A stretch of 64,000 bases of DNA from Candidatus Gottesmanbacteria bacterium (GTDB lineage Bacteria; Patescibacteriota; Microgenomatia; UBA10105; UBA927). Where the stretch lies: assembly GCA_023245335.1 (NCBI GenBank), contig JAHFKK010000001.1:427282-491281 (forward strand), in the 5' to 3' direction. The notes under the pieces are model-generated. The model saw nothing but the letters and a program-made list of their open reading frames with translations, was not told the origin of the DNA and did no database searches. Position 1 is the first letter of the stretch, and each line of letters starts with the position of its first letter. Both the position numbers and the translations under genes were made by a program. Of this stretch, positions 2,740 through 46,035 are shown in pieces.

Positions 2740-2767
2740 TTGACAAGGAGAAATAGTGATATATAAT
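2740..2767 (+). promoter_or_regulatory. sigma70-type promoter for rpoB (TTGACA-16-TATAAT)
   Basis: TTGACA at 2740-2745 and TATAAT at 2762-2767, about 100 nt upstream of the rpoB ATG. Confidence 0.5.
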
Positions 2768-2792
2768 AATGACTAATTGAATAGCCCAAGAG

Positions 2793-2819
2793 GCGAACGT
2801 TCATTGTTCGCTTCTTTTT
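2793..2819 (+). terminator. leader hairpin plus U-run (putative attenuator) in the rpoB 5' UTR
   Basis: GCGAAC-gttcatt-GTTCGC stem-loop followed by CTTCTTTTT, between the promoter and the rpoB start. Confidence 0.4.
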
Positions 2820-5800: not shown

Positions 5801-6246
5801 ATTCACTCGTCACGCAACAACCGCTCGGAGGGAAAGCCCAAATGGGAGGACAGCGCTTGGGAGAAATGGAAGTCTGGGCACTTGAGTCCCACCGCGCCGC
5901 ACATATACTTCAGGAGATGCTGACGATCAAATCCGATGATGTGGTCGGCCGCGCGAAAGCGTTTGAAGCAATCGTCAAAGGCACGGATATCCCGGCCTCT
6001 ACCGTACCGGAGTCGTTTAAAGTATTGGTCAAAGAATTACAGGCGTTGGGACTCAATGTCATCCCGACCGGGGTCGTGACCGTGAAACCTCCCGTCGTTA
6101 CCGATACTGTCAAAGAAGAAGTTGTCGAAAAAGTAGCCAAGGAATTAGCAGTCGAAAGCGGTGAGACCACCGTGACCGATGAAGCGGCAGAAAATCGCGC
6201 AACAGAAGTACCGGCTGAACCGAACGAAGGAGAAAAAAATGGATAA
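2869..6246 (+). CDS. rpoB: DNA-directed RNA polymerase subunit beta
   Basis: 1125 aa, unmistakable RpoB sequence throughout. Confidence 0.97.
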   Translation: MMASKSTSHKREFWGTDFPDLPRLDLTLVQRESYQWFLERGIKELLEEVTPMTDFTGKNWELTLGDYYFGRPRLTPEVAQEKGLTYDMPLKVKATLTNKQTGHQMSQEVFLGDIPSMTERGTFVINGIERCVVNQLVRSPGIYLTGEVDPTTGRTLYSAEIRPMHGSWLEFFITRNDVLMVRIDRRRKFVASTFLRAVGYGTNEEIERILKDADTNPDHQFTKATLAKDTTTNQNEAVLELYRKLRPGEPIVLDNAQELLRTMFFDYRRYSLERVGRYKMNKKLKLNVANEKANWVLTKDDIVGGIQYLMNLANGKGDVDDIDHLGNRRVRRVGELVATNAFRVGLLRLERSIREKMSLAGPNAEDLTPSHLVNARPIIASINDFFRTSQLSTILDQTNPLAEIDNLRRLTVMGVGGISRERASFSIRDINASQYGRVDPVRSPEGPNIGLVTYMALYSRVNEYGFLETPYRKAEKVSHGGTQKVRVTAAIEYLDANDEMYHYITHADLPIDGDGFITGTRVPVRYKGEFLETDASNIEYIDIVPRQVVGAPASLIPFLAHDEANRALMGTHMQCQAVPLLVPQSPIVGTGMEGAVVEAMGRLVRAKDDGEVIYADAALVKVKYKNGDIASYMPEKFKRTSQSTCYNQEVLVEIGQKVVKGDVLIEAPASENGELALGTNLTIAYMSYEGLGYEDAIVISDRLVRDDVLTSVHIEEHECSVVDTKLGPEETTRDIPNVGEEALRNLDENGIVVIGADVGPNDILVGKIAPKGETELTAEERLLRAIFGEKAREVRDTSLRLPHGERGTIIDVAVLDKEKGDELEPGTNRKIIVKVAQMRKVVVGDKLAGRHGNKGVISKIVKSGDMPYLADGTVIDIIISPLSVLSRMNLGQLLESHLGLAQSKLNLRVALPVFEHVSEERMVGQISKANLPLSGKSTLYDGKTGEPYKEPIVVGIGYIMKLIHMVEDKTHARSTGPYSLVTQQPLGGKAQMGGQRLGEMEVWALESHRAAHILQEMLTIKSDDVVGRAKAFEAIVKGTDIPASTVPESFKVLVKELQALGLNVIPTGVVTVKPPVVTDTVKEEVVEKVAKELAVESGETTVTDEAAENRATEVPAEPNEGEKNG

Positions 6247-9200: not shown

Positions 9201-9961
9201 CACAACTCACGATGCGGGTACGTCACGCGGGAGGAATCGTCGGACTCGACGTAACCCAAGGTTTGCCGCGTGTGGAAGAGCTTTTTGAGTCCCGCACGCC
9301 CCGGAATCTTTCACCTGTATCCGAGATTGCCGGAAAAGTGGAGATTACCGAAACAGAGCAAGGATATAAAGTACGGGTAAGGAATACCGCGATGAAACCG
9401 CCGGAAGAGCGGGAATACAGCATTGCCCTCACCAGTGAACTTCTGGTGAAAGAAGGGGACCTGGTTGCGGCCGGAGATCAGTTGGCAGGCGGGTATCTCG
9501 ATATCAAAGAAGTCCTGCAGGTCCGCGGACAGACCGGAGCCCAGCTCTATCTCATAAGCGAGATACAGAAAGTCTACGAATCACAAGGAATCTCTATCCA
9601 TGACAAGCATTTTGAAGTCATTGTCCGGAAGATGAGCGATAAAGTACGTATCGACACATCCGGAGATACGGTACTTCTGCCGGGCGAGCTGGTCGACAAA
9701 AACAGGTTCCATGAGGAAAACGCACGAGTCCTTGCCGAAGGCGGAGAGCCGGCGACCGCAAACATCACGATGCTTGGAATTACGCGTGCGTCTTTGTACA
9801 CCGAATCCTGGTTGTCCGCTGCAAGTTTCCAGGAAACGACCAACGTATTGACCGATGCGGCGCTTGCCAATAAGGAAGATAAGTTGTTGGGACTCAAAGA
9901 AAACGTTATAATCGGAAGACTCATTCCGGTCTCACCCGAACGGGCGATGATGCAAAACTAG
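6239..9961 (+). CDS. rpoC: DNA-directed RNA polymerase subunit beta'
   Basis: RpoC motifs including NADFDGD and the zinc-binding Cys; likely start is ATG 6239 (MDKKGNF, preceded by GAAGGAG) rather than the ORF-track start 6179; overlaps the rpoB stop by 8 nt. Confidence 0.95.
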   Translation: MDKKGNFANIADFTGLLIKLASPDEVKNWSYGEVIKPETINYRTLKPEKDGLFDERIFGPTKDWECYCGKYKRIRYRGIICDKCGVEVTQSKVRRERMGHISLAAPVAHVWFFKGAPSKLSLLMDISPRALEGVIYFAQYLVVHVDDDNKKKVMASLAEQGEKRVAELTKRIDAEKDKRKKELAKEKDGVHTSIQGKEGQDLAISELTLRERQELASLDEQARKESEKIKEVIEQLTAIVKSIKTLSTVTEDEYLRLLDYDAASFLKVGMGAEAVLEVVKKIDLDKLAAELREEIQNSSGQRHVKATKRLRVVDGMRKSVINPSWMIMNILPVIPPDLRPMVQLTGGRFATSDLNDLYRRVINRNNRLKHLMDLGAPEIILRNEKRMLQEAVDSLIDATQRPSSRTVIQPLRSLSDMLRGKQGRFRQNLLGKRVDYSGRSVIVVGPELRLNQCGIPKEMALEMFKPFVLRELIVRGIAPNVKNAKNVLERRTPEVYDILEEITKNHPVMLNRAPTLHKLGFQAFYPVLIEGSAIRVHPCVCAGYNADFDGDQMAVHIPLSAAAQKEAIDLMLPTHNLLKPADGSPITVPNKEMVVGCYYLTTTDPEEAKKDEKSLPVFSDEEEAMYAYQAGKTGLREMIRVRIDKALVATTVGRLMFNEILPDGLRYINTPVKAATVKQLITQAFGMYTKEEVTTLIDAIKNIGFFGATICGGLSVSVFDNEMISEKGDIIKEADGKVIEIDQNFQMGLITLEEKKRLSNEVWIEITERIADMTWDRLADNNPVKMIIESGGARASKDQLKQLCAIKGLVVDPLGKIVELPTKSNYRQGLSIFEYVTSTRGSRKGLTDSALKTADAGYLTRRLVDVAHDMIVRVGDCGTSEGWTVSRKDGRQTAFGTRIVGRFSAEDVVVPGTKKTLVKKGEEITDDVAKAIDESTVETVLVRSPIACQAKIGICATCYGRDYSTTKLVEIGTPVGVMAAQSIGEPGTQLTMRVRHAGGIVGLDVTQGLPRVEELFESRTPRNLSPVSEIAGKVEITETEQGYKVRVRNTAMKPPEEREYSIALTSELLVKEGDLVAAGDQLAGGYLDIKEVLQVRGQTGAQLYLISEIQKVYESQGISIHDKHFEVIVRKMSDKVRIDTSGDTVLLPGELVDKNRFHEENARVLAEGGEPATANITMLGITRASLYTESWLSAASFQETTNVLTDAALANKEDKLLGLKENVIIGRLIPVSPERAMMQN

Positions 9962-10038: not shown

Positions 10039-10473
10039 ATGCCGACAGTCAATCAATTAGTCCGTAAAGGACGACATCATAAAGCAAAAAAGGTGAAAGC
10101 AACCGCGCTTCGCAAATTTTTTAATGCGAAAGACGGCATCACGTCATCTCTTCCGGCGCCGTTTAAACGCGGTGTGGTGACTTTAGTCAAAACCATGACG
10201 CCGAAAAAGCCGAACTCCGCTCTCCGGAAGGTCGCTCGTGTGCGTCTTTCCAACAAGCAGGAAGTCACGGCATATATTCCCGGAATCGGACATGAACTCA
10301 CCGAACACGCGATTGTCCTTATCCGCGGCGGACGCGTACCGGATTTACCAGGAGTCAAATACCATATCGTCCGCGGCAAGTACGACACCACGGGTGTCGC
10401 CAACCGGAAGCAAGGGCGGAGCCGCTACGGCGCGAAAACTACGAGCGGTCCGGTAACCGCGGCAGCCAGTTAA
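10039..10473 (+). CDS. rpsL: 30S ribosomal protein S12
   Basis: [11 protein letters not shown] ... [10 protein letters not shown] ... [20 protein letters not shown]. Confidence 0.95.
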
Positions 10474-10486
10474 TGTACCACATAGT

Positions 10487-10960
10487 ATGAGAAGCAAAAA
10501 AACATACAAAAGACTTGTCACTCCGGACGCCGTCTACGGGAACCGGATGCTTGCACGGCTCATAAACCGCGTCATGCTCCATGGCAAAAAGACTATTGCC
10601 GAAAGCCACGTCTACAAAGCGCTCGATATCATCAAGGAAAAAGGCGAAGACCCGATCAAGGTTTTTGAGGCGGCACTCAATAATGTCGGCCCCAAAATGG
10701 AAGTCCGTACGCGTCGTGTCGGGGGAGCATCCTATCAGGTGCCGACCGAAGTCCGGGGAGACAGACGGGTTTCTCTGGCAATCCGATGGGTCGTTGAGTT
10801 TGCGAAGAACCGTTCGAACAAGGAATTTCATACCTACGCCGAAAAGCTGGCCGTAGAGCTTATGGATGCCGCGAAGAATCAGGGAGAGGCTATTAAACGC
10901 CGTGATACCGTCCTCCGCATGGCTGATGCCAACAAGGCGTTTGCACATTTCCGTTGGTAA
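10487..10960 (+). CDS. rpsG: 30S ribosomal protein S7
   Basis: 157 aa with typical S7 sequence. Confidence 0.95.
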   Translation: MRSKKTYKRLVTPDAVYGNRMLARLINRVMLHGKKTIAESHVYKALDIIKEKGEDPIKVFEAALNNVGPKMEVRTRRVGGASYQVPTEVRGDRRVSLAIRWVVEFAKNRSNKEFHTYAEKLAVELMDAAKNQGEAIKRRDTVLRMADANKAFAHFRW

Positions 10961-11566
10961 ATGAATAACGCTATTCTTTCGCACTTTCGGAAGAATGATC
11001 CCCGCATAGTCCCTCTCCTGGAATCCATTGTTTTAGAAGAAATTGTTTCCCGTAGACCCCAAGATTTTTTTGTGAGCCTTACGAGTGAGATCATCGGACA
11101 ACAGCTGTCCGGGAGAGTTGCTGATGTCATTGAGGGCAGGTTCCGGAAACTTTTTGGTAGGAAAAGGATCACCCCGGCTGCAGTGCTTGCTGTTTCGGAT
11201 GACGCGCTTCGAGGCACCGGTATGTCCTGGTCCAAAGTACACTTTATCAAAGACCTCGCGGACAAAGTGGTGAAAAAGGACGTGGATTTGTCGCGCCTCA
11301 CAACTCTCGATGATCACGACGTCATCATAGAGCTCACGAAAATAAAAGGTATCGGCCCGTGGACTGCGGAGATGTTTCTCATCTTTACGTTGGGGCGTCC
11401 CGATGTGTTTTCCTATGGAGATTTAGGGCTTCGACAGGCAATACAGAAGCTCTACGGGTTACGTAAAGAACCCACGGTGCGGCAGATGGAGCGGTTGACC
11501 AAGCGCTGGAGTCCGTATCGTACCCACGCCGCTCGTGTTCTCTGGCGGTATAAGGATGCGAAGTGA
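10961..11566 (+). CDS. HhH-GPD DNA glycosylase (AlkA-like 3-methyladenine glycosylase)
   Basis: HhH-GPD core (IKGIGPWTAEMFLIF ... PDVFSYGDLGL); its ATG immediately follows the rpsG stop codon. Confidence 0.75.
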   Translation: MNNAILSHFRKNDPRIVPLLESIVLEEIVSRRPQDFFVSLTSEIIGQQLSGRVADVIEGRFRKLFGRKRITPAAVLAVSDDALRGTGMSWSKVHFIKDLADKVVKKDVDLSRLTTLDDHDVIIELTKIKGIGPWTAEMFLIFTLGRPDVFSYGDLGLRQAIQKLYGLRKEPTVRQMERLTKRWSPYRTHAARVLWRYKDAK

Positions 11567-11669
11567 CCAGGGACATGCTGGACAAAGTATAGCTAATCAT
11601 CAATACTGGTTCTAACGAGTACTACCGCATGGAACCGATGCAAAACGAACGCTATATAGCATTCCCCGA

Positions 11670-12089
11670 ATGCATGGAGGACATACAATACCCATGAAAA
11701 TACTTATCGCTATCCTTTTGTCGATCGGCCTCGGCGTACTCCTATGGCAGGGGATCATGATAGGATCCGCTATCCGATCCTGCGCGGCAAATCATCAGGA
11801 AGAACTTGCGCTTGCCAGGACCCAGATAGAATCGATACGAGGGGATCATGTGCAATACTGCTCTACCTCCTACGATATACTGGCGTCCTGGGATGCCTGT
11901 GTGTCTGCGGCCCCCATGCAAACGTCTACGCCTAAATTTATTGTCTTGCGACTTAAGCCGGTCGTGACGCAAGTCCTTGCCATCATCGGGGATCCCAATA
12001 GTATGGTCAACCAGCTGAAGCTGGAGCACGATGATCTTTGCAAAGACCAGATCTATCTCATATTTTATCCGCCGCAGCAGGACAAATGA
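11670..12089 (+). CDS. hypothetical secreted or membrane-anchored Cys-containing protein
   Basis: N-terminal hydrophobic segment, four Cys, no recognisable family; the start may be the internal MKILIAI. Confidence 0.35.
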   Translation: MHGGHTIPMKILIAILLSIGLGVLLWQGIMIGSAIRSCAANHQEELALARTQIESIRGDHVQYCSTSYDILASWDACVSAAPMQTSTPKFIVLRLKPVVTQVLAIIGDPNSMVNQLKLEHDDLCKDQIYLIFYPPQQDK

Positions 12090-12099
12090 CACGAAACCA

Positions 12100-12741
12100 A
12101 TGAGAAATATCGTCACACGCGTGATGAGTCGGGTTTGGATCAAACGGAAAACATCCAAACGATTATTTCTTGCGGTTCCTATTCCGCTCCAATGGTCAGA
12201 AGCGTTATCCTCTTTGCAGGAGTCGGTGAAATCCCGCCATATTACGGGTGCCGTACCGACACGCTGGACGGAGAGAGATAGTCTCCACATGACCGTCCGC
12301 TTTATCGGTAATGTCGATGAACGGTGTATCCCGAGTTTGGTCACGACGATCCGGAGGCTTCTTCGGGAAGTGCGTCCATTTGAACTTCCATTCGAATCTG
12401 CGCATGTCGCAACGGTTGATGATCCCAAAATGATTTGGGCGACGTTCAGGAACGTCAAACCGTTTCAACAGGTGGTTACCAGGAGCACAAGGAGAATCGC
12501 GAAGTTCCTTTTCAAAGAATGTAACGGTACGGTGATGCACAACGGCCATGATGTCATCCCGCACGTGACGCTTGCCCGTCTGAACGGCACGGTTTCGTTT
12601 TCGGCTGATGTCCCGGGGAATATGCTTTTCCCCAAAGCATTACCCGTCTCATCTCTGGTTCTCTATGAATCTAGGACGTTTTCGACCGGGTCGGTGTATC
12701 ATACGATAGCAACGTTTCCGTTAAACGATATACGTATATGA
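12100..12741 (+). CDS. thpR: RNA 2',3'-cyclic phosphodiesterase (2H phosphoesterase, LigT/ThpR family)
   Basis: two H-x-T/S-x motifs (LHMTVRF and PHVTLARL); start trimmed to ATG 12100 to avoid overlapping the upstream ORF (ATG 12124 is an alternative). Confidence 0.7.
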   Translation: MRNIVTRVMSRVWIKRKTSKRLFLAVPIPLQWSEALSSLQESVKSRHITGAVPTRWTERDSLHMTVRFIGNVDERCIPSLVTTIRRLLREVRPFELPFESAHVATVDDPKMIWATFRNVKPFQQVVTRSTRRIAKFLFKECNGTVMHNGHDVIPHVTLARLNGTVSFSADVPGNMLFPKALPVSSLVLYESRTFSTGSVYHTIATFPLNDIRI

Positions 12742-13952
12742 AGAAAATCGGTATCGGTATAGCTGCAGTTTTTTTGGTCGGTGCATTGGGGTATGCCGGC
12801 TGGTTTGCCTATACGAATTTACGGGGTTCCGGCCCCGCGTTCGGACCGGTGCCAGGCAATATCGTCAATTACTTTAACACCCCCACGGCCGCCGTTTCGC
12901 CCCGGGCGCCGGTAAATAATACTGAGTTTCCTCTCACGGTCCCCCAAGGATTTAGCATAGCGCTCTATGCTAAAGATCTAGGGAGTCCGCGGGTACTGGC
13001 GTGGGATCCCAAAGGAACGCTCGTCGTGAGTATAACCCAGGATGGGAAAGTCGTCGCTCTTCCCGATGATAATCATGATGGTATATCGGATCGCACGGTC
13101 ACCATTCTTTCCGGACTCAGGCTGCCGCACGGACTGGCATTTCGCGGCAATACGCTCTATGTTGCAGAAACAAATGAGATAGCTACATACGACTATAACC
13201 CGGCGACCCTGACAGCAACCAATAGAAAAAAAATCATCGATCTGCCGGATAAAGGATTTCATTTTACCCGAACGATCGGCTTCGGTCCGGACGGGAGACT
13301 GTATACCGCTATAGGAAGCGACTGTAATGTTTGTGTGGAAAAAGATGCCAGGCGCGCGGCTATATATGCATCGAATAGCGATGGCACAGACTTTAAACCA
13401 TATGCCACCGGGTTACGGAATGCGGTGTTTTTTACCTGGAGTTCCGACCGGCGCATGTGGGCAACGGTCATGGGTAGGGATTATCTTGGTGACAACGTGC
13501 CGCCTGATACGGTCGACATTATTTCCGGCGGTAAAAATTACGGTTGGCCGTACTGTTACGGGAAAAATGTTTGGGATCAGACCTTTGATCCGTCACAAAA
13601 AGCAAAGGACTTTTGCGCAACAGTAGAACCATCGCATATAGATATGCAGGCGCACTCAGCTCCCCTCGGATTGGCGTTTGTGCCGAAAAGTTGGCCGCAG
13701 GAGTATCAGAATAATTTACTAGTTGCGATGCACGGGTCATGGAATAGGAGTGCTCCTACAGGCTACAAAATCGTCCGATTCAAACTGGATAACAAGGGAA
13801 ATTATTTAGGAGTTGAAGATTTTATATCCGGTTGGCTCACAAACGGCGGCGCTCTCGGCCGTCCGGTAGATTTGTTATCTGATCAACAAGGAAATCTTTT
13901 TGTTTCCGATGATAAGGCGGGGGTGATCTACAAAATTTCCTCAGCGCATTGA
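12738..13952 (+). CDS. PQQ-dependent sugar dehydrogenase (soluble glucose/sorbosone dehydrogenase family)
   Basis: N-terminal TM anchor; beta-propeller SGDH-like motifs (PHGLAFRGNTLYVAE, GRDYLGDN). Confidence 0.75.
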   Translation: MKKIGIGIAAVFLVGALGYAGWFAYTNLRGSGPAFGPVPGNIVNYFNTPTAAVSPRAPVNNTEFPLTVPQGFSIALYAKDLGSPRVLAWDPKGTLVVSITQDGKVVALPDDNHDGISDRTVTILSGLRLPHGLAFRGNTLYVAETNEIATYDYNPATLTATNRKKIIDLPDKGFHFTRTIGFGPDGRLYTAIGSDCNVCVEKDARRAAIYASNSDGTDFKPYATGLRNAVFFTWSSDRRMWATVMGRDYLGDNVPPDTVDIISGGKNYGWPYCYGKNVWDQTFDPSQKAKDFCATVEPSHIDMQAHSAPLGLAFVPKSWPQEYQNNLLVAMHGSWNRSAPTGYKIVRFKLDNKGNYLGVEDFISGWLTNGGALGRPVDLLSDQQGNLFVSDDKAGVIYKISSAH

Positions 13953-14311
13953 CAGCCCGGCTGCGACAGATTATTCTCCAGAGAATGAGCATGGGGAGAA
14001 GGCAGATTGCCGTTAGGACAAAGGACTGGAATGAGCTGCACGACCGGGTAAAAGCGATGAGACGGGCATGGAGTGTCGGAAATTCTGCCGAGGCCTTCGC
14101 CTATTTTCCCCGGGTATACCGGTTAGTCGAAGAAATGGATTTGGACACATTATATGTTGCCAGGGAATATCCGCCGTCTTTACGAATGAAACCGGAAGTG
14201 TTGAGACACAGCATGTATGTTGAACCGGGTGAATTTTTTACACGCGTTGCGTTTGAATTGGATTACGAAAAGTATCCCGAAGGGCAAAAACGTCTCGAAG
14301 AACGTGTTTAA
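13949..14311 (+). CDS. hypothetical protein
   Basis: 120 aa ORF overlapping the upstream gene by 4 nt; no family recognised. Confidence 0.4.
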   Translation: MTARLRQIILQRMSMGRRQIAVRTKDWNELHDRVKAMRRAWSVGNSAEAFAYFPRVYRLVEEMDLDTLYVAREYPPSLRMKPEVLRHSMYVEPGEFFTRVAFELDYEKYPEGQKRLEERV

Positions 14312-14313
14312 AT

Positions 14314-16026
14314 CTATCCGAACGTAAACGCGTAGAGTTCTAGGTTCCCATCCAGGAATTCAAGCTTCAGTATATGGTCTCCCGGCTGTGACAAGGTGAT
14401 AAGTGTATACAATCGATCCGTGTCCACGGTGACGATACCATCTTTTACGTCCACTCCCGCTGATCCGCTGACGTCAGTTCCGTCCAGCGTCACTTTGAGT
14501 TTTCCTGATACTCCCGCTGTGTGCGGACGCATGACAAGGTAGGCGTTCTTCGCGCTGAAATGATAGATGAGCGTCGCACCGGCGCTTGGCATGGTGCGTT
14601 CCGCTCCGACATTCCATGCGCCGCCTAAGGCGAACGTGTTGGACGGTACGCTTGCGGGTGCCGTATAGGATGTTGTCTTATCCGGCTGTACGTTTTCGGC
14701 GCTTACCAGTCCCGCCATACGGTTATACCCGACATACGTTTCCGGCGTTTGGGAATATACGTGATATTCCGCGTTGTCGATTTTCGGTTGGTCCGTGACT
14801 CCGGTTTCGGCAAGGAGCGTTTGTATATATCCTTCCGATTCATTATAGTTTCCTTCACCGAAATGGGTGAAGCGGATCTTGCCGTTTTTGTCGATGAAGT
14901 ATTCCGCCGGCCAGTATTGGTTGGTATACGCGTTCCATGTGGCGTAATCGTTGTCCTGCATCACCGGATAGGTAATGCCGAAATCTTTTATGGCTTTTCC
15001 GACATTGTCGGCATTTTTTTCAAACTCAAACTCCGGTGTGTGTACGCCCACTATGACGAGGCCTTTGTCTTTGTATTTGGCATACCACGCTTTGGTATAG
15101 GGAAGCGTCCGGATGCAGTTGATGCACGTGTACGTCCAGAAGTCTACGATAACCACTTTGCCCCGAAGCGATTTTATGGAGAGTGCCGGACTATTAAACC
15201 ATTTGCCGCCGGCGACGAATTCCGGTGCTGTTCCATAGTTGGATTCGAGTAAATCTGTGATCATAGAACCTCCTTTATTATTTTTAATCGTTTGTAATTG
15301 TTTTTGGACGGCTTGATTATTTTCTATGTTGGTAAGCCCTGTGCCATAGGTCGGAAATTTGGTCAGGATATACGTTTGGAACTGCCGGTCCCAGGAGAAG
15401 AAGATGGCGATAGCTGTGAACAGCATGAGTATGCCGAATATTTTTTGGATATGTTCAGTATTTTTCGTGAGCCACGGATGATTGGTGAGTAATGTCCGTC
15501 CTCCGAAAGTGATTGCAAGAAGGGGAAGCGATGTGCCGAGTGCATAGACGAGTGTGATTATGATTGCGTTGAGTCCTACGGTTTGGGTCGCCGCAAGAGC
15601 GATAATTGAGGCTAAAATCGGTCCCACGCACGGGGTCCAGACCAATCCGAGACTTAGGCCCACCAATATTCCGGAAAGAAATCCGTCACCAGTCTGATTT
15701 TTGGGCCCGGCATTTGCCAGGCGCGAAAACATAAGCTCCAGCCGTTTTTGGAATGAGGGTATGACGAGCCCTAATCCGAATACTGCGATGACACCTACGG
15801 CGACAATCCGCAGAGCGTCAGGCGAGATGCCCGTCGCTTTCACAATTGCGGTGAGAAACAAAGTGAAGAATGTGAAGCTTGCGATAAATCCCGTAACCAC
15901 CCCAAACGGCCGGCGCTTGCCTCCCGTGATCGTGCCGGAGAGAACGATGGGAAGAATCGGTAATATGCATGGAGAAAGTATCGTTACTATTCCGCCAAGG
16001 AAAGCAAAAAGAACGAGAATAAGCAT
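14314..16026 (-). CDS. DipZ-like fusion: CcdA/DsbD transmembrane domain + thioredoxin-like domain + C-terminal beta-rich domain
   Basis: N-terminal CcdA with two Cys (SPCILP, TPCVGP); central redoxin CxxC (WTYTCINC); ~170 aa C-terminal extension. Confidence 0.8.
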   Translation of the reverse strand: MLILVLFAFLGGIVTILSPCILPILPIVLSGTITGGKRRPFGVVTGFIASFTFFTLFLTAIVKATGISPDALRIVAVGVIAVFGLGLVIPSFQKRLELMFSRLANAGPKNQTGDGFLSGILVGLSLGLVWTPCVGPILASIIALAATQTVGLNAIIITLVYALGTSLPLLAITFGGRTLLTNHPWLTKNTEHIQKIFGILMLFTAIAIFFSWDRQFQTYILTKFPTYGTGLTNIENNQAVQKQLQTIKNNKGGSMITDLLESNYGTAPEFVAGGKWFNSPALSIKSLRGKVVIVDFWTYTCINCIRTLPYTKAWYAKYKDKGLVIVGVHTPEFEFEKNADNVGKAIKDFGITYPVMQDNDYATWNAYTNQYWPAEYFIDKNGKIRFTHFGEGNYNESEGYIQTLLAETGVTDQPKIDNAEYHVYSQTPETYVGYNRMAGLVSAENVQPDKTTSYTAPASVPSNTFALGGAWNVGAERTMPSAGATLIYHFSAKNAYLVMRPHTAGVSGKLKVTLDGTDVSGSAGVDVKDGIVTVDTDRLYTLITLSQPGDHILKLEFLDGNLELYAFTFG

Positions 16027-16121
16027 ATATATGTATTATACATCACTGAATCGTTCGTTCATCCTGGTCGAGTTTGAATTTGCTCAGATGTCGTATAATA
16101 TATGCGACAAAGGAGATTATT

Positions 16122-16346
16122 ATGGCAGGTACAGCAAAATCCGAACTTGTTGAGTGGGTATTAGGTCTTGATGAGATCCCGAAATTTGTGGCGTTAGCCG
16201 CTGAACATCATATTAAAATGGATGGTGTTCCTCGGAAAGACGCAGATGGGCGGCGCGTTTATTTGCAGGTTGTGAGACCGGCTTTAGAACAAACATATAG
16301 AGATTTTGCTATTGCTGTTCGTCCCCATCACCAGTCAGATTCCTAG
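16122..16346 (+). CDS. hypothetical small protein
   Basis: ATG 16122 preceded by AAAGGAG and a TATAAT box (16094-16099); directly followed by the cupin gene. Confidence 0.45.
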   Translation: MAGTAKSELVEWVLGLDEIPKFVALAAEHHIKMDGVPRKDADGRRVYLQVVRPALEQTYRDFAIAVRPHHQSDS

Positions 16347-16694
16347 TTGATCTTTATGGATCTTAAAGCATTCGTGGGAAAGTATAACCTTGCCGAAGTA
16401 GATAAAAAACTTGGCGAGACCTATTGGTCGCCCGTTGATGTTGCATACATTAATGATTGGGTCTTGCGCGCGGCCGCTGTGAAAGGCGAATTCCATTGGC
16501 ATACACACGATGATGATGAGTTCTTTCTCGTCTATAAAGGATCTTTGACCATCCAGACGGAAAAGGGAGACGTTAAATTACTTGAGGGTGAGGGATATGT
16601 TGTTCCTAAAGGAGTTAAGCATTGTCCTAAAACAAATGTCCGTACCGTTGTCCTTCTTCTTGAGCCGAAGCGTGTGAATACAAAGGGGGACTAG
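16347..16694 (+). CDS. cupin domain protein
   Basis: two cupin motifs (HWHTHDDDEFFLVYKG and VVPKGVKH); the first ATG is at 16356. Confidence 0.8.
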   Translation: MIFMDLKAFVGKYNLAEVDKKLGETYWSPVDVAYINDWVLRAAAVKGEFHWHTHDDDEFFLVYKGSLTIQTEKGDVKLLEGEGYVVPKGVKHCPKTNVRTVVLLLEPKRVNTKGD

Positions 16695-16701
16695 TTTCTT
16701 T

Positions 16702-16896
16702 TTATTTGGACGGAAGTTTTTGATTATTATCTTCTTTTTCCTCAGACTTGGTTATTCTATCCCCTGGATTATCGCTGTATGCCCACCGACTCATTTGCCG
16801 GATTGCCCAGACGGTATCCCGCCACCAACACAATTCGACGTTGCAACCCTTAGGATCGCACATTGTCCCTTTTGCTTTACAATACTCCGGAGCCAT
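16702..16896 (-). CDS. hypothetical Cys-rich small protein, leaderless
   Basis: C-x6-C-x4-C-x4-C spacing; a TATAAT box 6 nt upstream of the ATG on the minus strand. Confidence 0.3.
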   Translation of the reverse strand: MAPEYCKAKGTMCDPKGCNVELCWWRDTVWAIRQMSRWAYSDNPGDRITKSEEKEDNNQKLPSK

Positions 16897-16950
16897 CTCG
16901 GTATTATAGAGTTTAGGGTGTAAATTCGCCAGTTGGCTTATAATAACAGT

Positions 16951-17166
16951 ATGAATCCTCTCACAACGATTCCCGGCGTCGGCAAAAGCATTGCTGCGGA
17001 TTTGAACGGCATCGGCGTTTATCGTGTGGAAGAACTAAAAGGAAAAGATCCGGAGAAGTTATACCAACAGTTGTGTAAGAAGCAAGGCGTGAGGCTTGAT
17101 CCCTGTGTACTCTATACTATGCGTTGCGCAGTCTATTTCGCCTCAAACAACGTTCATGATCCGTAA
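16951..17166 (+). CDS. helix-hairpin-helix protein (Cdd1 / pathogenicity-locus-like)
   Basis: TIPGVGKSIAADLNGIGVYRVEELKGKDPEKLY HhH motif; TATAAT 16939-16944 then 6 nt then ATG (leaderless). Confidence 0.5.
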   Translation: MNPLTTIPGVGKSIAADLNGIGVYRVEELKGKDPEKLYQQLCKKQGVRLDPCVLYTMRCAVYFASNNVHDP

Positions 17167-17220
17167 TTCCTCAAATGGTGGAAGTGGAAGGATGGTCGCA
17201 GGAGTTGATACAATGCTCAT

Positions 17221-17484
17221 ATGAAACCATCGAACAGTTTAGAAAAACGGGTTGTGGAGATAGAAGAACGCAACAAACGAGTCGAGACGGATAAGGCGTG
17301 GGAAACAAGTTGGGTCCGGCGGGGGTTATTGGTCGCATTCACATATCTTTCTGTCGGTCTATACCTTCGCGTCATCGCTATCCCGAATCCGTGGCTCAAT
17401 GCGATCGTACCATCACTGGGATTTTTGCTCTCTACACTGTCGCTCCCGTTCTTCAAGCAGTGGTGGATGATGATGCATAAGTGA
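17221..17484 (+). CDS. 2TM-domain small membrane protein
   Basis: RVETDKAWETSWVRR followed by two TM helices and LSTLSLPF, resembling the 2TM family from memory; TACAAT then 6 nt then ATG. Confidence 0.5.
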   Translation: MKPSNSLEKRVVEIEERNKRVETDKAWETSWVRRGLLVAFTYLSVGLYLRVIAIPNPWLNAIVPSLGFLLSTLSLPFFKQWWMMMHK

Positions 17485-17524
17485 ATGATTGCGAGTGAAT
17501 GTCTTGAGGTGTATGTCGGAGGTA

Positions 17525-17908
17525 TTAAGGGGTGAGCATGACATCAAGCGATTTATATTTTCGATTAGCCTCCAGATTAACAAGAAAAGCTGCAACGCCG
17601 GCGGGACGAATATGAATATTTGCTCTTTCGCCAGTGAATGTTCTTGATAATGTAAATTTTTTCTCAAAGTCAGGAGGGTCATTTTCAATGCCGCTCACAT
17701 CCAGCATATCCTTAAGAGATCTTCTGCGGTTTCTTGTTTCAAAAGAGAGAACCGTTGCATCCCGACTCTCGGCGCGGCTAACACGAACGGATCCTAATAC
17801 AGTACCGTCACTTTTTTGAATCTGGAGTTGCAGTTCAGATCCGGGATGTTTAACGTCCGAAAATTCTGCGTTTGTTTCGTACTCTTTCGCAACAGTTTGG
17901 ATTGGCAT
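17525..17908 (-). CDS. hypothetical protein
   Basis: 127 aa ORF with no strong competing ORF; no SD and no family recognised. Confidence 0.3.
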   Translation of the reverse strand: MPIQTVAKEYETNAEFSDVKHPGSELQLQIQKSDGTVLGSVRVSRAESRDATVLSFETRNRRRSLKDMLDVSGIENDPPDFEKKFTLSRTFTGERANIHIRPAGVAAFLVNLEANRKYKSLDVMLTP

Positions 17909-17983
17909 ACTATGGGGGCAGAAGTTGGGATGATAGTACCAACTAACTGCATATATATCAAGTAAGGGGTTTCTCCCGAATCT

Positions 17984-18012
17984 CTAGACACAGGAGACAA
18001 TTTCCCGTATAA
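17984..18012 (+). promoter_or_regulatory. putative promoter for fusA (TAGACA-17-TATAAT)
   Basis: TAGACA 17984-17989 and TATAAT 18007-18012. Confidence 0.4.
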
Positions 18013-18040
18013 TCATAGAGTTGAATTGATGAAGCAGTTT

Positions 18041-18067
18041 TGCTTCCCAAGTCGGGGAGCTTTTTTT
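18041..18067 (+). terminator. hairpin plus T8 run in the fusA leader
   Basis: GCTTCCC-aagtc-GGGGAGC followed by TTTTTTTT, ending 6 nt before ATG 18074. Confidence 0.35.
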
Positions 18068-18073
18068 GATTTT

Positions 18074-20182
18074 ATGGCAAATCCACAAACAACGCTGACA
18101 GAAGACCGAGACGTACCGCTTGATAAGGTGCGTAACATCGGTATCATCGCGCACATCGACGCGGGTAAAACTACCACGACCGAACGCATTCTCTACTACA
18201 CCGGACGTACGTATAAAATCGGTGATATCGACGAAGGCACCACCCAGATGGACTGGATGGAGCAGGAAAAAGAACGGGGAATTACCATTGTGTCAGCTGC
18301 TACTACCACTTTCTGGAAAAGCTACCGGTTTAACATCATTGACACACCGGGACATGTAGACTTCACCGCGGAGGTTGAGCGATCATTGCGCGTTCTGGAC
18401 GGGGGAATTACCGTCCTCGATGCAGAAGAGGGCGTGCAATCCCAATCCGAGACCGTGTGGCACCAGGCGGACAAATATAAAGTGCCGCGTATCTGTTTTA
18501 TCAACAAAATGGACAAAATCGGCGCGGACTTCCGTCATACCATCGGCCAGATCGAAGAGCGTTTGGGTGCGCGTACCGCCGTCATGGTGGTTCCGATCGG
18601 TCGGGAAGCGGCTCACAAAGGTATTGTCGACCTTCTGACGCTCAAAGCATATGTATGGAGTACGGATGACCTCGGAGCACATGCAGAAGAATTACCGGAA
18701 ATTCCTGCGGATCTCAAAGACGAAGTTACTAAATCCCGTCATGACCTCATCGAACGCATTTCCGAAACTGATGACGTCCTCATCGAAAAATATCTTGCAG
18801 GTGAAGAGCCGACAGTGCCCGAGCTCAAAGCGGCACTCCGCCGCGCAGTCATCGCATACAAATTAGTTCCGATTTATTGCGGTACCAGCCTCCGGAACAA
18901 AGGTGTCCAGCCGCTTCTGGATGCTGTCGTCGATTATCTGCCGTCGCCTCTCGATCTTCCGCCTGTTGATGGCATCGAACCCAGGACGGGAGAAAAGATC
19001 ACCCGCAAACGCGATCAAAGCGATCCGTTTTCGGGACTCGCGTTCAAGATTCAGATCGATCCGCACGTCGGAAAACTCACCTATGTCCGCATATATTCCG
19101 GCAAACTGGAATCCGGCTCTTATACCTGGAACTCGAGTAAAGGCGCGCAGGAGCGCGTCGGCCGACTCCTTCTCATGCATGCCAACCAGCGCGAAGAGAT
19201 AAAGGAAGCGTATGCAGGAGAGATTGTTGCCGTGGTAGGACTGAAAGACACAATCACCGGCGATACGCTTTCTGATCAGGATCACCCGATCGTTTTAGAA
19301 AAGATTATTTTCCCGGATCCTGTTATTTCGCTTGCCATCGAGCCTAAAACCAAAAACGATCAGGAGAAGATGGGATATGCGCTCCAGCGGCTCGCCGAAG
19401 AAGACCCGACATTTAAGATAAAAAGCAATCTCGAGACCAACCAGACCATTATCTGGGGTATGGGAGAGCTGCATCTGGAAATTCTTGTGGACCGCATGAA
19501 ACGCGAATTTAAAGTAGAAGCCAACGTCGGCGCGCCGCAGGTCGCGTACAAGGAAACGATTAAGAAACTCGCCGAAGGCGAAGGCAAATACATTCGCCAA
19601 ACCGGCGGTCATGGTCAATACGGTCACGCGCTTATCCGTATCGAACCCAAAGGCCGGGGAGAAGGATTTGAATTTATCGATGCGATAAAAGGCGCTACTA
19701 TTCCCAATGAGTTTATCGCGCCGGTAGAAAAAGGAATCAAGGAAGCCATGGAAAATGGCGTTCTCGCGGGCTATCCCCTCGTCGATATGTCAGCAACCCT
19801 TTATGACGGGAGCTACCACGACGTCGATTCTTCAGAAATCGCATTTAAGATAGCAGGAAGCATGGCGCTTCAGGATGCGGTCAAGCATGCAGATCCTACG
19901 ATTCTCGAGCCTATTATGAAGGTCGAGGTCACGACCCCGGATGAATACATGGGAGATGCAATCGGAGATTTATCCGCCAGGCGTGCGGAAATTCAGGGGA
20001 CGGAGAAGCGGGGAACGGTCACGATCATCCTTGCCATGGTGCCCCTTGCAGAGCTTTCCGGATACGCGACGGTTCTGCGGAGTTTGTCCAAAGGCCGCGC
20101 AACATATTACATGGAACCGAGCCATTATGAGGAAGTCCCGAAAAATATTCAGGAAAAGATCATTGCAAAAACAGTGGCCTGA
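18074..20182 (+). CDS. fusA: elongation factor G
   Basis: GTPase motifs ([27 protein letters not shown]) and full EF-G architecture; the alternative in-frame start 18026 would add 16 aa. Confidence 0.95.
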
Positions 20183-20246
20183 TGATAAAATAAACACGCG
20201 ATCACATTGTTGAGTCGTACTTATTGGTTTATTAAAGGAGGAAGTT

Positions 20247-21434
20247 ATGGCTGATGCTGCAAAATATGTTCGGACGAAACCACATTTGAATATCGGAACC
20301 ATTGGGCACGTTGATCATGGTAAGACCACACTTACATCAGCCATCACGCACGTCTTGGCAAAAGTTGGTATGGCCAAAGCCCTCAAATATGAGGAAATCG
20401 ATAACGCTCCGGAGGAAAAGGCCCGAGGCGTCACCATCAACATCCATCACTCTGAATACGAAACAGCAAAACGGCACTATGCACACATCGATGCGCCGGG
20501 ACATGCTGACTATGTCAAAAATATGATTACCGGAGCCGCCCAGATGGACGGAGCGATATTGGTCGTTTCCGCGCCGGACGGTCCTATGCCGCAGACCCGG
20601 GAACACATTTTGCTTGCCAAACAGGTAAATGTGCCGGCAATTGTCGTATTTATGAACAAATGCGACATGGTACAGGATAAAGAGCTTTTGGACCTCGTCG
20701 AAATGGAAGTCCGTGAGCTTCTGACCAAATACGGATATCCCGGCGACAAGATTCCGGTCATCCGCGGAAGTGCTCTCAAAGCGCTCCAGGGTGATGCCGA
20801 AGCGGAAAATTCTATTACCGAGCTCATGAAGACGGTCGACGAGTACGTGCCGGAACCGGTACGGGAACTCGACAAACCGTTCCTCATGCCGATTGAAGAC
20901 GTCTTTTCTATCAAGGGTCGAGGTACGGTCGTTACCGGCCGCATAACCCGAGGAAAAGTCAAAGTCGGTGAGACGGTTGAGATCATCGGTATTAAGGCCA
21001 CGCAACCCACAGTGGTTACGGGAGTCGAAATGTTCCGGAAATCACTCGACGAAGGACTCGCAGGCGACAACGTCGGTATTCTTCTTCGCGGAGTGGAAAA
21101 AGAACAGGTCGAACGCGGACAAGTGTTAGCCGCTCCGGGCAGCGTCAAGCCGCATACGGAATTTGAATCCGAAGTATACGTCCTGACGAAAGAAGAGGGT
21201 GGACGTCACACACCGTTCTTCACCGGGTACCGACCACAATTCTATATCCAGACGACAGACGTGACCGGAGAAGTGACTTTGCCGCAAGGCGTTGAGATGG
21301 TCATGCCGGGAGACAGCACAAAGATGGTTGTTAAGCTGATTGTGCCGGTCGCTCTTGAAGAAGGATTGCGATTTGCTATCCGAGAAGGTGGACATACAGT
21401 TGCAAGCGGAGTTGTTACAAAAATTGTTGCTTAA
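20247..21434 (+). CDS. tuf: elongation factor Tu
   Basis: [22 protein letters not shown]; 395 aa. Confidence 0.97.
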
Positions 21435-21557: not shown

Positions 21558-21866
21558 ATGCCGAAAGGTCGCATACGAGTCAGGCTCAAAGCCTATGACA
21601 GCAGGATCATTGATGACTGTTGTCAAAAAATATTAGACACGGCGGTGAGAACCGGGGCACGGGTCGTCGGACCCATCCCGCTTCCTACCGACAAGCAGCA
21701 CTTTAATGTCGCCAAAGCGACATTTATTGACCGCAATAGCCGTGAAGATTTTATGATCCGTGTGCACAAGCGACTTATCGACATTGTGGAACCGACAGAC
21801 AAAACCATCGACCAGCTCATGCACCTGGACCTGCCAGCAGGCGTGGACATTGAGCTCAAGATGTAA
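21558..21866 (+). CDS. rpsJ: 30S ribosomal protein S10
   Basis: 102 aa, RIRVRLKAYD ... GPIPLPT. Confidence 0.95.
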   Translation: MPKGRIRVRLKAYDSRIIDDCCQKILDTAVRTGARVVGPIPLPTDKQHFNVAKATFIDRNSREDFMIRVHKRLIDIVEPTDKTIDQLMHLDLPAGVDIELKM

Positions 21867-21972
21867 TTTGAGTTATCGGGGATACTTTGGTATACTTGAA
21901 GATAGATTGATATGACGCGACAGCGTACGTATCGGGAACATCGGTACACCAAAAGTCTCGGATGAGCGTAAT

Positions 21973-22020
21973 TTCCGCCAATCGGCGGAAGTAGACGACC
22001 TCGACCGAGGTCGTTTTTTT
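21973..22020 (+). terminator. two consecutive hairpins, the second a terminator-like stem plus T7 run, between rpsJ and rplC
   Basis: TTCCGCC-aatc-GGCGGAA (21973-21990), then ACGACCTC-gacc-GAGGTCGT followed by TTTTTTT (21995-22020). Confidence 0.4.
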
Positions 22021-22033
22021 GTTGGTGAAGACT

Positions 22034-46025: not shown

Positions 46026-46035
46026 GAAACGCTTG

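Follow-up and report, generated by a model that had tools for sequence, protein, structure and literature searches.

The str operon (rpsL-rpsG-fusA-tuf) is among the most conserved gene arrangements of bacteria and serves as a synteny anchor. Here, we describe a stretch of 64,000 nucleotides (nt) from an uncultured, groundwater-type Candidatus Gottesmanbacteria bacterium, hereafter called the window (assembly GCA_023245335.1, contig JAHFKK010000001.1, positions 427,282 to 491,281, forward strand), in which this operon is split between rpsG and fusA and a DNA glycosylase gene of the HhH-GPD family occupies the place of fusA beside rpsG. As in the canonical operon of E. coli and B. subtilis, the rpsL-rpsG and fusA-tuf pairs are intact, keep their order and orientation between rpoBC and the S10 operon, and the gene 3' of rpsG is tightly joined to rpsG. 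The locus differs from the canonical operon in that ∼7.1 kb with 14 open reading frames (ORFs) are inserted, the partner of rpsG is the glycosylase gene and not fusA, fusA has a conserved promoter-like element and leader of its own, and rpoBC and rpsLG are packed as one unit. Translation of the canonical operon is coupled and subject to feedback by S7 at the translational level (Saito, Mattheakis & Nomura 1994, cited through PMC2965389).

Several operons of the core machinery are known to carry attenuators in their leaders, namely, the E. coli S10 leader (L4), the rplL-rpoB attenuator, the predicted "rpsL-leaders," and the streptococcal rpsG-fusA attenuator (PMC2965389), and RNA motifs occur before rpsL and fusA in Pelagibacter (PMC2704228; PMC2965389). 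Lineage-specific multigene insertions have been published for a core-machinery operon block that retains gene order and orientation as our locus does. The breaks described there lie between operons; ours is an old break within the str operon, and the first gene after it is conserved and fused to the upstream unit.

In a published survey covering 305 genomes, only two of those with a single EF-G had its gene outside the str operon (PMC3150367). We retrieved 80 species loci with S7, one genome per species, of which 78 were informative, and took a fusA less than 700 nt from rpsG as the canonical spacing. This spacing was found in 60 of the 78 species; rpsG was followed by tuf in 11, with record titles that are mostly those of deltaproteobacterial or Desulfobacterota-type metagenome-assembled genomes (MAGs), and the junction was interrupted in 7. 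All but one of the interrupted loci come from Patescibacteria-like relatives of the window (L005, L006, L007, L011, L035, and L042; L numbers designate the loci of relatives that were compared with the window), and five of these six have unrelated genes in the gap (OmdA, TGT, LytR_C plus nucleotidyl transferase, and Obg plus GatB). The first-pass annotation of the window had stated that rpsL-rpsG-fusA-tuf is normally contiguous, which is true of the 60 species, whereas breaks recur at rpsG-fusA in Patescibacteria. Together, the sample and the survey indicate that the rpsG-fusA junction is normally very stable yet is a recurrent breakpoint in the Candidate Phyla Radiation (CPR). Several GTDB-representative MAGs among L005 to L012 and L021 are titled "uncultured Gammaproteobacteria/Pseudomonadales bacterium," and these titles look like mislabels; RpoC, S12, and EF-G of the MAGs so titled are 60 to 88% and S7 is 52 to 71% identical to the window proteins, with S12 and EF-G above the values of non-CPR loci. 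Neither an rpsG-glycosylase linkage nor a split str operon of CPR bacteria turned up in the literature that we searched. The split is a real, inherited, clade-wide variant of a known operon and involves no new kind of gene or mechanism.

The likely explanation for the locus as a whole is a str operon working as two transcription units parted by an old, flexible interval. The first unit would start at a consensus promoter and leader 5' of rpoB and run through rpoB-rpoC-rpsL-rpsG into the glycosylase gene; in this species, it probably continues through the genes of a small cysteine (Cys) protein, a 2H phosphoesterase, a glucose/sorbosone dehydrogenase (GSDH)-like protein, and a hypothetical protein, until it meets a convergent DipZ-like gene. 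The second unit would be driven by a sigma-70-type promoter ∼60 nt 5' of fusA and comprise fusA-tuf-rpsJ, with a leader of ∼54 nt whose GC hairpin and U-run probably form a promoter-proximal attenuator. The gene block runs from rpoC (6239-9961) through rpsL, rpsG, the interval, fusA, and tuf to rpsJ (21558-21866), and the features on which the argument rests are as follows (aa, amino acids).

10039..10473, plus strand: rpsL, ribosomal protein S12 (PF00164)
10487..10960, plus strand: rpsG, ribosomal protein S7 (PF00177), C terminus ...AFAHFRW followed by TAA
10958..10963, plus strand: stop-start junction TAAATG, read in the raw sequence
10961..11566, plus strand: HhH-GPD 3-methyladenine DNA glycosylase, compact Mag/AlkA2 type, 201 aa (PF00730)
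17985..18013, plus strand: promoter-like element of fusA, TAGACA (17985-17990), 17-nt spacer, TATAAT (18008-18013), 11/12 consensus
18020..18073, plus strand: fusA leader, a candidate attenuator, with the conserved block GTTGAATTGATGAAGCA, the hairpin GCTTCCC-aagtc-GGGGAGC (18042-18060), and U7 (18061-18067), the ATG following 6 nt on
18074..20182, plus strand: fusA, EF-G, 702 aa from ATG 18074
20247..21434, plus strand: tuf, EF-Tu, followed by rpsJ at 21558..21866

Both halves are compact, rpsG following rpsL on the same strand after a 13-nt gap (10473 to 10487) and tuf following fusA after 64 nt (20182 to 20247). Between them, the ORF map gives a distance from rpsG to fusA of 7,113 nt (10960 to 18074) with 14 ORFs, 3 of them on the minus strand, in agreement with the ∼7 kb of genes described in the first-pass annotation.

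Promoter-like elements and leader hairpins before fusA, rpoB, and rplC

The likely start of fusA is the ATG at 18074, and the EF-G proteins of relatives begin with MA(N/S)PQTT. The start previously proposed right after 18025 (TTG 18026) was not confirmed, ATG 18074 being more likely. An extension of EF-G from TTG 18026 or ATG 18029, as in a 717-aa gene call, was rejected: its translation would have to pass through the conserved hairpin, its protein sequence is not shared by relatives, and in L165 and L168 the frame is closed or does not match that of fusA. This call warns annotators that the 5' end of fusA is easily over-extended across the leader hairpin.

In the 16.4 kb of the window that we scanned for promoter- and terminator-like sites, TAGACA-17-TATAAT before fusA was the best promoter match. 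Both hexamers and the 17-nt spacing are kept in nine lineages (the window, L165, L168, L170, L175, L177, L179, L180, and L006), and the genes 5' of this conserved element differ in identity and strand between lineages. The proposal that fusA has a promoter-like element of its own thus gained support at the sequence level from the conservation of position, spacing, and hexamers.

The first-pass annotation had not remarked on the hairpin and U-run that follow this element. The nine lineages contain six stem sequences, with the GC hairpin and the U-run conserved. Apart from the stem of the window, the stems are GUCCCGC/GCGGGAC, GGCUGCGC../..GCGUAGCC, CUGUCCCGCC/GGCGGGGCAG, CUGCUUCG/CGAAGCAG, and AGCUUCCA/UGGGAGCU, and the divergent ones were found in L170, L177, L179, L180, and L006. 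Of six lineages that were folded, five have the hairpin as the centroid or minimum-free-energy (MFE) structure; the exception is L165, whose MFE fold is an alternative GAAGCA/UGCUUC hairpin. As MAFFT alignments of the leaders set the divergent stems out of register, we used a covariance model, which was built from four sequences and run on 514 kb (the window plus related loci). At an E value of <1, the model detected only fusA leaders, and nine weaker matches (E values of 1.5 to 10) look like noise. The model detected the leaders of L170 and L180, whereas those of L177, L179, and L006, the most divergent, escaped it and were judged by eye and by folding. In the model-fitted alignment of six sequences, 100% of the cells pair and three of the seven pairs show compensatory double changes, values that reflect an alignment fitted to the structure. 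A search of Rfam 15 gave no match anywhere in the window at the gathering threshold and, in positions 17900 to 18150 at E values of ≤5, only a chance long noncoding RNA match (E = 2). The leader contains no conserved reading frame, and a leader peptide was rejected on this ground.

The same layout of promoter-like element, hairpin, and start codon precedes rpoB and rplC, which supports the view that fusA starts a new transcript.

2740..2816, plus strand: start of the rpoB unit, TTGACA-16-TATAAT (2740-2767, 12/12), 12-bp hairpin plus U-run (2788-2816), rpoB ATG at ∼2872
21868..22023, plus strand: rpsJ-rplC unit, TTGAGT-17-TATACT with TG (21868-21896), hairpin plus U-run (21993-22023), putative rplC ATG at 22034

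The rpoB hairpin lies ∼20 nt past its promoter-like element and is the only terminator-like site in the 300 nt scanned. Both are conserved in L165, L172, and L173, as far as named Gottesmanbacteria, the hairpin being nearly identical, and they mark a candidate leader or attenuator that has no Rfam match. The rpsJ-rplC hairpin (CGACCTCGACCGAGGTCG plus T7) is strong and terminator-like, lies 17 nt 5' of the putative rplC start, and is kept in both L175 and L180; the S10 operon thus seems to break after rpsJ. Three putative units, each with a promoter-like element and a terminator-like leader, can therefore be recognized in the region; they would extend from rpoB to the glycosylase gene and probably beyond, over fusA-tuf-rpsJ, and from rplC onwards. 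The genes 5' of rpoB (961-2872) encode a PDDEXK_1 nuclease, a TspO/MBR protein, and, on the minus strand, a DUF1761 protein, and are not rplK-rplA-rplJ-rplL. The usual linkage of L10-L7/L12 to rpoBC is therefore also absent from the window and L165, and L172 and L173 have a Dus gene at this place.

Like the known attenuators of machinery operons, the fusA leader has a GC hairpin and a U-run between the presumed transcription start and the first codon, and in several lineages an alternative pairing overlaps the 5' arm of the terminator. It differs from them in showing no sequence or Rfam similarity, in being preceded by what appears to be a dedicated promoter rather than by an upstream cistron, and in a design that recurs before rpoB and rplC. 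In the window, L165, L168, L175, and L180, the 5' arm (UGCUUC) can instead pair with a GAAGCA that lies 5' of it, the geometry of a classical antiterminator. Two points weigh against an attenuator. This pairing is absent from L177, L179, and L006 (which has a short leader) and marginal in L170, so that the antiterminator model is only partly supported, and a hairpin plus U-run placed right after a promoter would also stop the transcripts of that very promoter. The element could instead belong to a small RNA gene of ∼50 nt, or it could be an mRNA-stabilizing or S1-binding element for translation initiation on a fusA that lacks a well-placed Shine-Dalgarno (SD) sequence. The distance from the promoter-like element to the U-run, a constant 50 to 55 nt in most lineages, would suit a small RNA; the U-run lies 6 to 26 nt from the ATG, where a U-rich ribosome standby site could act; and L165 has a second promoter-like element and hairpin, as if the first were a separate unit. 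We nevertheless consider these alternatives doubtful, albeit credible, in view of three observations: the element is seen only before fusA and immediately 5' of its start in eight of the nine lineages, the analogous elements before rpoB and rplC fit leaders better than independent small RNA genes, and a GC stem followed by U5 to U7 is the canonical signature of an intrinsic terminator. Promoter-proximal attenuation is thus the probable role of the fusA hairpin.

The extra stretch of L165 (18100-18230) places a further 125 nt between the first promoter-like element with its hairpin and fusA. It holds an extended -10-like sequence (TGATATAAT) and the second hairpin (GGAAGGTACCCCTCC...GGAGGGTAT) and may be a duplicated or layered fusA leader.

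The junction between rpsG and the glycosylase gene

The end of rpsG and the start of the glycosylase gene abut in the sequence ...TTCCGT TGG TAA-ATG AAT AAC..., with the TAA at 10958-10960, the ATG at 10961, and a spacer of 0; this zero spacer, reported in the first-pass annotation, was seen both in the ORF map and in the raw sequence. We compared the spacers of six lineages. Against 0 nt in the window, the spacer is -7 nt in L165, L168, L170, and L176 (ATGGTAA) and -1 nt in L172 (TAATG). In the lineages with -7 nt, the penultimate S7 codon ends in A (CGA, CGA, AGA, and AAA), a base that makes the glycosylase ATG, (CG/AG/AA)A TGG TAA being read as ATG GTA A.. in the glycosylase frame. In the window, a frame change shifted the glycosylase start to the ATG directly after the TAA. 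S7 is 68 to 89% and the glycosylase 63 to 75% identical across the six lineages; because both proteins have diverged, the retention of an overlap or abutment suggests more than inertia.

No SD-like sequence was found 5' of the glycosylase gene, and our scan detected neither a plus-strand promoter-like site from rpsL to position 11579 nor an intergenic terminator-like site from rpsG to where the co-directional block ends. A terminator would not fit between rpsG and the glycosylase gene. A downstream start of the glycosylase is implausible, because its N terminus (..ILSHF.. DP) is conserved from residue 5 or earlier. Tight packing extends to both sides of the junction. In relatives, the gaps among rpoB, rpoC, rpsL, and rpsG are ≤20 nt, and the run rpsL-rpsG-glycosylase-Cys protein-2H-GSDH of L168 has gaps of 6, -7, -1, 12, and -11 nt. 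Past the glycosylase gene, the gaps of the window block are 127 nt (103 nt from the longest ORF start of the Cys protein), 10, -4, and -4 nt, and the convergent DipZ-like gene lies 2 nt past the last stop of this co-directional block.

We infer that the glycosylase gene is a distal cistron of an rpoB-rpoC-rpsL-rpsG unit. Its translation would most likely rely on ribosomes that terminate on rpsG and then reinitiate, because the gene lacks an SD sequence and its ATG abuts the S7 stop codon or, in relatives, overlaps it. The co-transcription or translational coupling that the first-pass annotation took the junction to imply is supported by the overlap or abutment in six lineages, the missing SD sequence, and the lack of room for a terminator.

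Several points weigh against this reading. Tight junctions are common in such a compact genome (4 of 13 nearby co-directional pairs have a spacer of ≤0), so that a zero spacer alone is weak evidence. In deeper relatives, the glycosylase gene lies 45 to 1040 nt from rpsG, sometimes with a TATAAT of its own; not all members of the clade can therefore share the coupling. A weak promoter-like site (9/12) at 11579-11607, in the gap between the glycosylase and Cys protein genes, may mean that the genes downstream of the glycosylase are transcribed separately. Co-transcription, reinitiation, and promoter use are, moreover, all deduced from sequence.

The adjacency could thus be without function, a product of genome compaction in which the glycosylase gene has its own promoter inside rpsG, is translated independently, and the overlap is simply not selected against. 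Overlapping or abutting unrelated genes are indeed frequent in this genome; the gene stands 45 to 1040 nt from rpsG in L173/L178, L177, L179, and L005, with a TATAAT ∼17 nt 5' of the ATG in L178; and 80 homologues (38 to 50% identity) are unlinked to rpsG, which indicates that the enzyme does not need this context. We find a functionless adjacency unlikely, since the -7, -1, and 0 junctions have been kept in six lineages with heavily diverged synonymous sites, the shift of the start codon in the window restored an abutting ATG, the rpsL-rpsG scan revealed no plus-strand promoter-like site, and the glycosylase gene has no SD sequence. In addition, a same-strand gene that starts at or in the rpsG stop codon rides on the rpsG transcript unless a terminator lies within the coding sequence. 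The conserved junction provides a testable natural case of termination-reinitiation in organisms not yet grown alone.

The enzyme itself is ordinary. The match to PF00730 (HhH-GPD) scored 49.6 bits against a gathering threshold of 26.2 (E value, 5.8e-13), and the best structure matches were D. radiodurans AlkA2 (2yg8, 4.7e-37), B. halodurans Mag (2h56, 2e-31), and S. pombe Mag1 (3s6i, 7.6e-21), with S. pombe Mag1 and Mag2 both among the closest solved structures. The match to E. coli AlkA is limited to its two C-terminal domains (AlkA residues 126 to 273), and the score against the full-length AlkA equivalog NF007641 was 37.6 bits, below the cutoff of 229. The HhH motif, the GRxD loop, and Asp154 (GIGPWTAEMFL...GRPDVFSYGD154) are invariant in 11 orthologues. 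Asp154 aligns with the SSGD of DrAlkA2 and is taken to be the equivalent of the catalytic Asp238 of AlkA. The "AlkA-like HhH-GPD glycosylase" of the first-pass annotation is accordingly a compact Mag/AlkA2-type protein and not a full AlkA. It shares with the compact AlkA family (DrAlkA2, 2yg8/2yg9; BhMag, 2h56; Mag1, 3s6i) the HhH-GPD fold, a size of ∼200 aa, the lack of the AlkA N-terminal domain, and the HhH motif plus Asp; it differs in the linkage of its gene to rpsG, its activity being a prediction. We know of no linkage of the DrAlkA2, BhMag, or S. pombe Mag1 genes to ribosomal protein genes. The glycosylase looks functional and appears to be under purifying selection; only its context is unusual.

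Coupling at this junction would tie a housekeeping base excision repair enzyme to the expression of ribosomal proteins and RNA polymerase. A broader scheme can be drawn in which lineage-specific, promoter-proximal attenuator leaders before rpoB, fusA, and rplC have replaced operon-level coupling and answer to one shared effector, for instance S7 or a different ribosomal protein, a Nus factor, or nucleotide pools, which recoordinates the units, with the glycosylase locked to the rate of ribosome synthesis by reinitiation. We hold this scheme to be quite unlikely in its entirety; if true, growth rate-coupled repair of DNA alkylation, and possibly of RNA alkylation, would be embedded in a ribosomal protein regulon. 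The three leaders represent candidate cis-regulatory RNAs in a phylum (CPR) for which, to our knowledge, almost no regulation has been described.

Inheritance of the rpsG-fusA interval

The gene order of the window, together with the exact glycosylase and S7 proteins, was found in three other assemblies, namely, a 311-kb ENA contig, a 7.8-kb Logan contig, and a 4.3-kb ENA contig. Both junctions are identical in the 311-kb contig and in the Logan contig, which stems from another run. The 4.3-kb contig contains the 5' junction and represents a different strain, because its neighbor proteins are 99% identical. A further contig with this arrangement (1,218,111 bp) may be the one from which the window was taken. 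For glycosylase homologues that are 56 to 100% identical, all contigs that reach past the gene show rpsL-rpsG upstream or fusA downstream (10 genomic contexts), and the synteny rpsG-glycosylase-...-fusA holds in at least 10 related genomes from NCBI, JGI, ENA, and Logan. Of the GTDB species representatives, the nearest one (S7, 71% identical; glycosylase, 46% identical) has an interval that opens with the glycosylase gene 45 nt after rpsG and a fusA that lies 11.3 kb downstream on the same strand. The nearest named relatives of EF-G (83 to 94% identical) are all Candidatus Gottesmanbacteria or "Patescibacteria group," and those of the glycosylase are Gottesmanbacteria and Roizmanbacteria. As none of 80 JGI metagenome loci with 38 to 50%-identical glycosylase homologues had rpsL or rpsG nearby, we rejected the idea that this glycosylase family is linked to rpsG in general; only orthologues with an identity of ≥56%, together with L005, show such a link.

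The interval consists of a conserved core and variable cargo. The core is formed by the glycosylase gene and the minus-strand DipZ-like gene, which recur through the deepest branches; the Cys protein joins it in the sub-clade of the window only, and an 87-aa protein and a Cdd1 protein are often encoded just 5' of fusA. As cargo, the window and L168 have the 2H phosphoesterase and GSDH genes, and L165 has three sulfatases; L172, L173, and L178 carry DsbA, VKOR, thioredoxin, flavodoxin, SDR, and Crp; L177 carries cupredoxin and pterin-4a; L179 carries DUF2130, AstE-like, MGMT/ATL-like, and PfkB; and L005/L180 carry AP_endonuc_2, LigT, PGA_cap, and others. DUF2000 is also among the cargo genes that differ between relatives. 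The interval is ancestral and clade-wide on the sequence comparisons made here and is not a recent insertion. The accessory insert of the first-pass annotation is therefore real, as an old, clade-wide interval. In UBA10118 (L008), which is similarly distant (RpoC, 75% identical), rpsG and fusA are only 162 nt apart, which indicates that the split arose, or reverted, within Microgenomates.

Alternatively, the interval could be a recent horizontal acquisition, a genomic island or mobile element having entered a str operon that was still intact in this species. The 3' 2 kb, with hyp74 (a 74-aa ORF), the cupin gene, and the 64-aa and 127-aa ORFs, have a lower GC content (0.43 to 0.46; GC at third codon positions [GC3], 0.33 to 0.46), these ORFs have no homologues in the relatives examined except for a weak hyp74 match in L175, and the cargo differs among relatives (sulfatases; DsbA/VKOR/SDR/Crp; DUF2000), one of which has KilA-N and RhuM genes. 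A recent island is nevertheless very unlikely. Integrase and transposase genes, a flanking tRNA, and direct repeats are lacking, the only tRNA of the window being at 46035, and the glycosylase and DipZ-like genes share the interval across genomes with only 76 to 91% RpoC identity, which makes the split far older than the species. From the glycosylase through the DipZ-like gene (the first 5 kb), the composition matches that of the flanking core genes in GC (0.50) and GC3, and the low values belong to the lineage-specific ORFs at 16.1 to 17.9 kb. Only parts of the cargo are recent, and only the last 2 kb are compositionally deviant.

A chimeric metagenomic contig joining unrelated DNA between rpsG and fusA, for which one might argue that all sources are short-read metagenome assemblies, has negligible probability; the misassembly for which the first-pass annotation had allowed was rejected on the independent assemblies with identical junctions, one of them from a different strain, and on the synteny conserved in at least 10 related genomes.

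An entire lineage of the CPR has thus long lived with a split str operon and with a repair glycosylase in the place of fusA beside rpsG. That the lineage kept the operon split suggests that even this arrangement can be given up if both halves have promoters of their own. For Gottesmanbacteria-like genomes, useful synteny markers are provided by the variable interval and by the junction of rpsG with the glycosylase gene.

Some further features of the relatives' loci were recorded. The interval contains other DNA repair genes, namely, a PF01035 gene (MGMT/ATL-like DNA-binding domain; L179, 9664-9981) and an AP_endonuc_2 gene (endonuclease IV-type TIM barrel; L005, 14776-15621, corresponding to L180, 3028-3873), and a LigT 2H phosphoesterase gene recurs in it in the window, L168, and L005. 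In L173 (GCA_030679255.1), the interval after the glycosylase gene exceeds 10 kb and has KilA-N and RhuM-family genes at 17275-19325, which hints at a mobile or prophage-derived segment in the same slot. L177 (4575-5985) and L179 (5294-5998) have an extra ORF (349 aa and 90 aa, respectively, without a Pfam family) between rpsG and the glycosylase gene; their S7 gene calls are short at the N terminus (128 and 136 aa), probably through miscalled start codons. In L088 (2686-6595), where neither rpsL nor rpsG is nearby, a DipZ-like gene (60% identical) is followed after 1.6 kb by a glycosylase gene (48% identical); the glycosylase-DipZ association may therefore predate the rpsG link or not depend on it.

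Accessory genes and possible leaderless starts

The genes between the glycosylase gene and fusA are listed below.

11694(11670)..12089, plus strand: small membrane-anchored or secreted protein with four Cys, without a Pfam family
12100..12741, plus strand: 2H phosphoesterase, ThpR/LigT-type RNA 2',3'-cyclic phosphodiesterase (PF02834, PF13563, TIGR02258)
12738..13952, plus strand: membrane-anchored GSDH-family (glucose/sorbosone dehydrogenase-like) beta-propeller (PF07995, 4.3e-12; DUF7133)
13949..14311, plus strand: hypothetical protein, 120 aa, TTG start overlapping the GSDH stop
14314..16026, minus strand: DipZ-like fusion (PF02683, PF00578/PF08534, PF17991 at 2.9e-36)
16122..16346, plus strand: hypothetical protein, 74 aa, SD sequence AAGGAG
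16356..16694, plus strand: cupin
16702..16896, minus strand: Cys-rich 64-aa ORF, TATAAT 6 nt 5' of the ATG
16951..17166, plus strand: Cdd1-family helix-hairpin-helix protein, 71 aa, TATAAT-N6-ATG (PF11731, 2e-25)
17221..17484, plus strand: 87-aa hydrophobic, probably membrane protein, TACAAT-N6-ATG
17525..17908, minus strand: hypothetical protein, 127 aa, low GC3 of 0.34

The gene identities given in the first-pass annotation were essentially right by Pfam, NCBIfam, and structure matches. The Cys protein likely starts at 11694, with GGAGGA 12 nt 5', the longest ORF beginning at 11670; it is kept 3' of the glycosylase gene in L165, L168, L170, L175, and L176 with 25 to 44% identity. The 2H phosphoesterase scored 78.9 bits with TIGR02258 (cutoff, 65.7) and has both HxT motifs (HMTV and HVTL). 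The "PQQ-type sugar dehydrogenase" of the first reading belongs to the GSDH family, a membership that does not establish PQQ dependence, and its score with TIGR03606 was far under the cutoff. Among the relatives examined, we found no homologue of the 120-aa ORF, of the cupin, or of the 127-aa ORF, and the sole match of the 74-aa ORF was a weak one in L175 (39% identity); the 74-aa ORF and the cupin gene have a lower GC content of 0.45 to 0.46. The 87-aa protein precedes fusA in L165 and L168 too (75 to 76% identity).

The DipZ-like protein combines a CcdA/DsbD membrane domain (Cys in SPCILP and TPCVGP), a TlpA/ResA-like thioredoxin domain (CINC), and a C-terminal Thioredoxin_10 domain, and its gene is present in the rpsG-fusA interval of relatives with 58 to 73% identity. 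It resembles M. tuberculosis DipZ in its DsbD_TM-redoxin-Thioredoxin_10 architecture, membrane Cys, and CxxC motif and differs in that its gene is a stable minus-strand resident of the rpsG-fusA interval, where relatives often also have DsbA, VKOR, and thioredoxin genes. A TATAAT lies 8 nt 5' of its ATG (16026).

What had been described as three tiny leaderless genes after the cupin gene are in fact four small ORFs, of which two lie on the minus strand and three fit a leaderless signature. The motif TAnAAT-N6-ATG occurs five times in the 64-kb window against 2.2 matches expected, a count also attained by 11 of 100 shuffles. Among these matches, three are at ORF starts within 330 nt of one another, at 16896 (minus strand), 16951, and 17221. 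Leaderless transcripts of the three small ORFs are plausible, if unproven, and the Cdd1 gene of L170 has the identical TATAAT-N6-ATG spacing.

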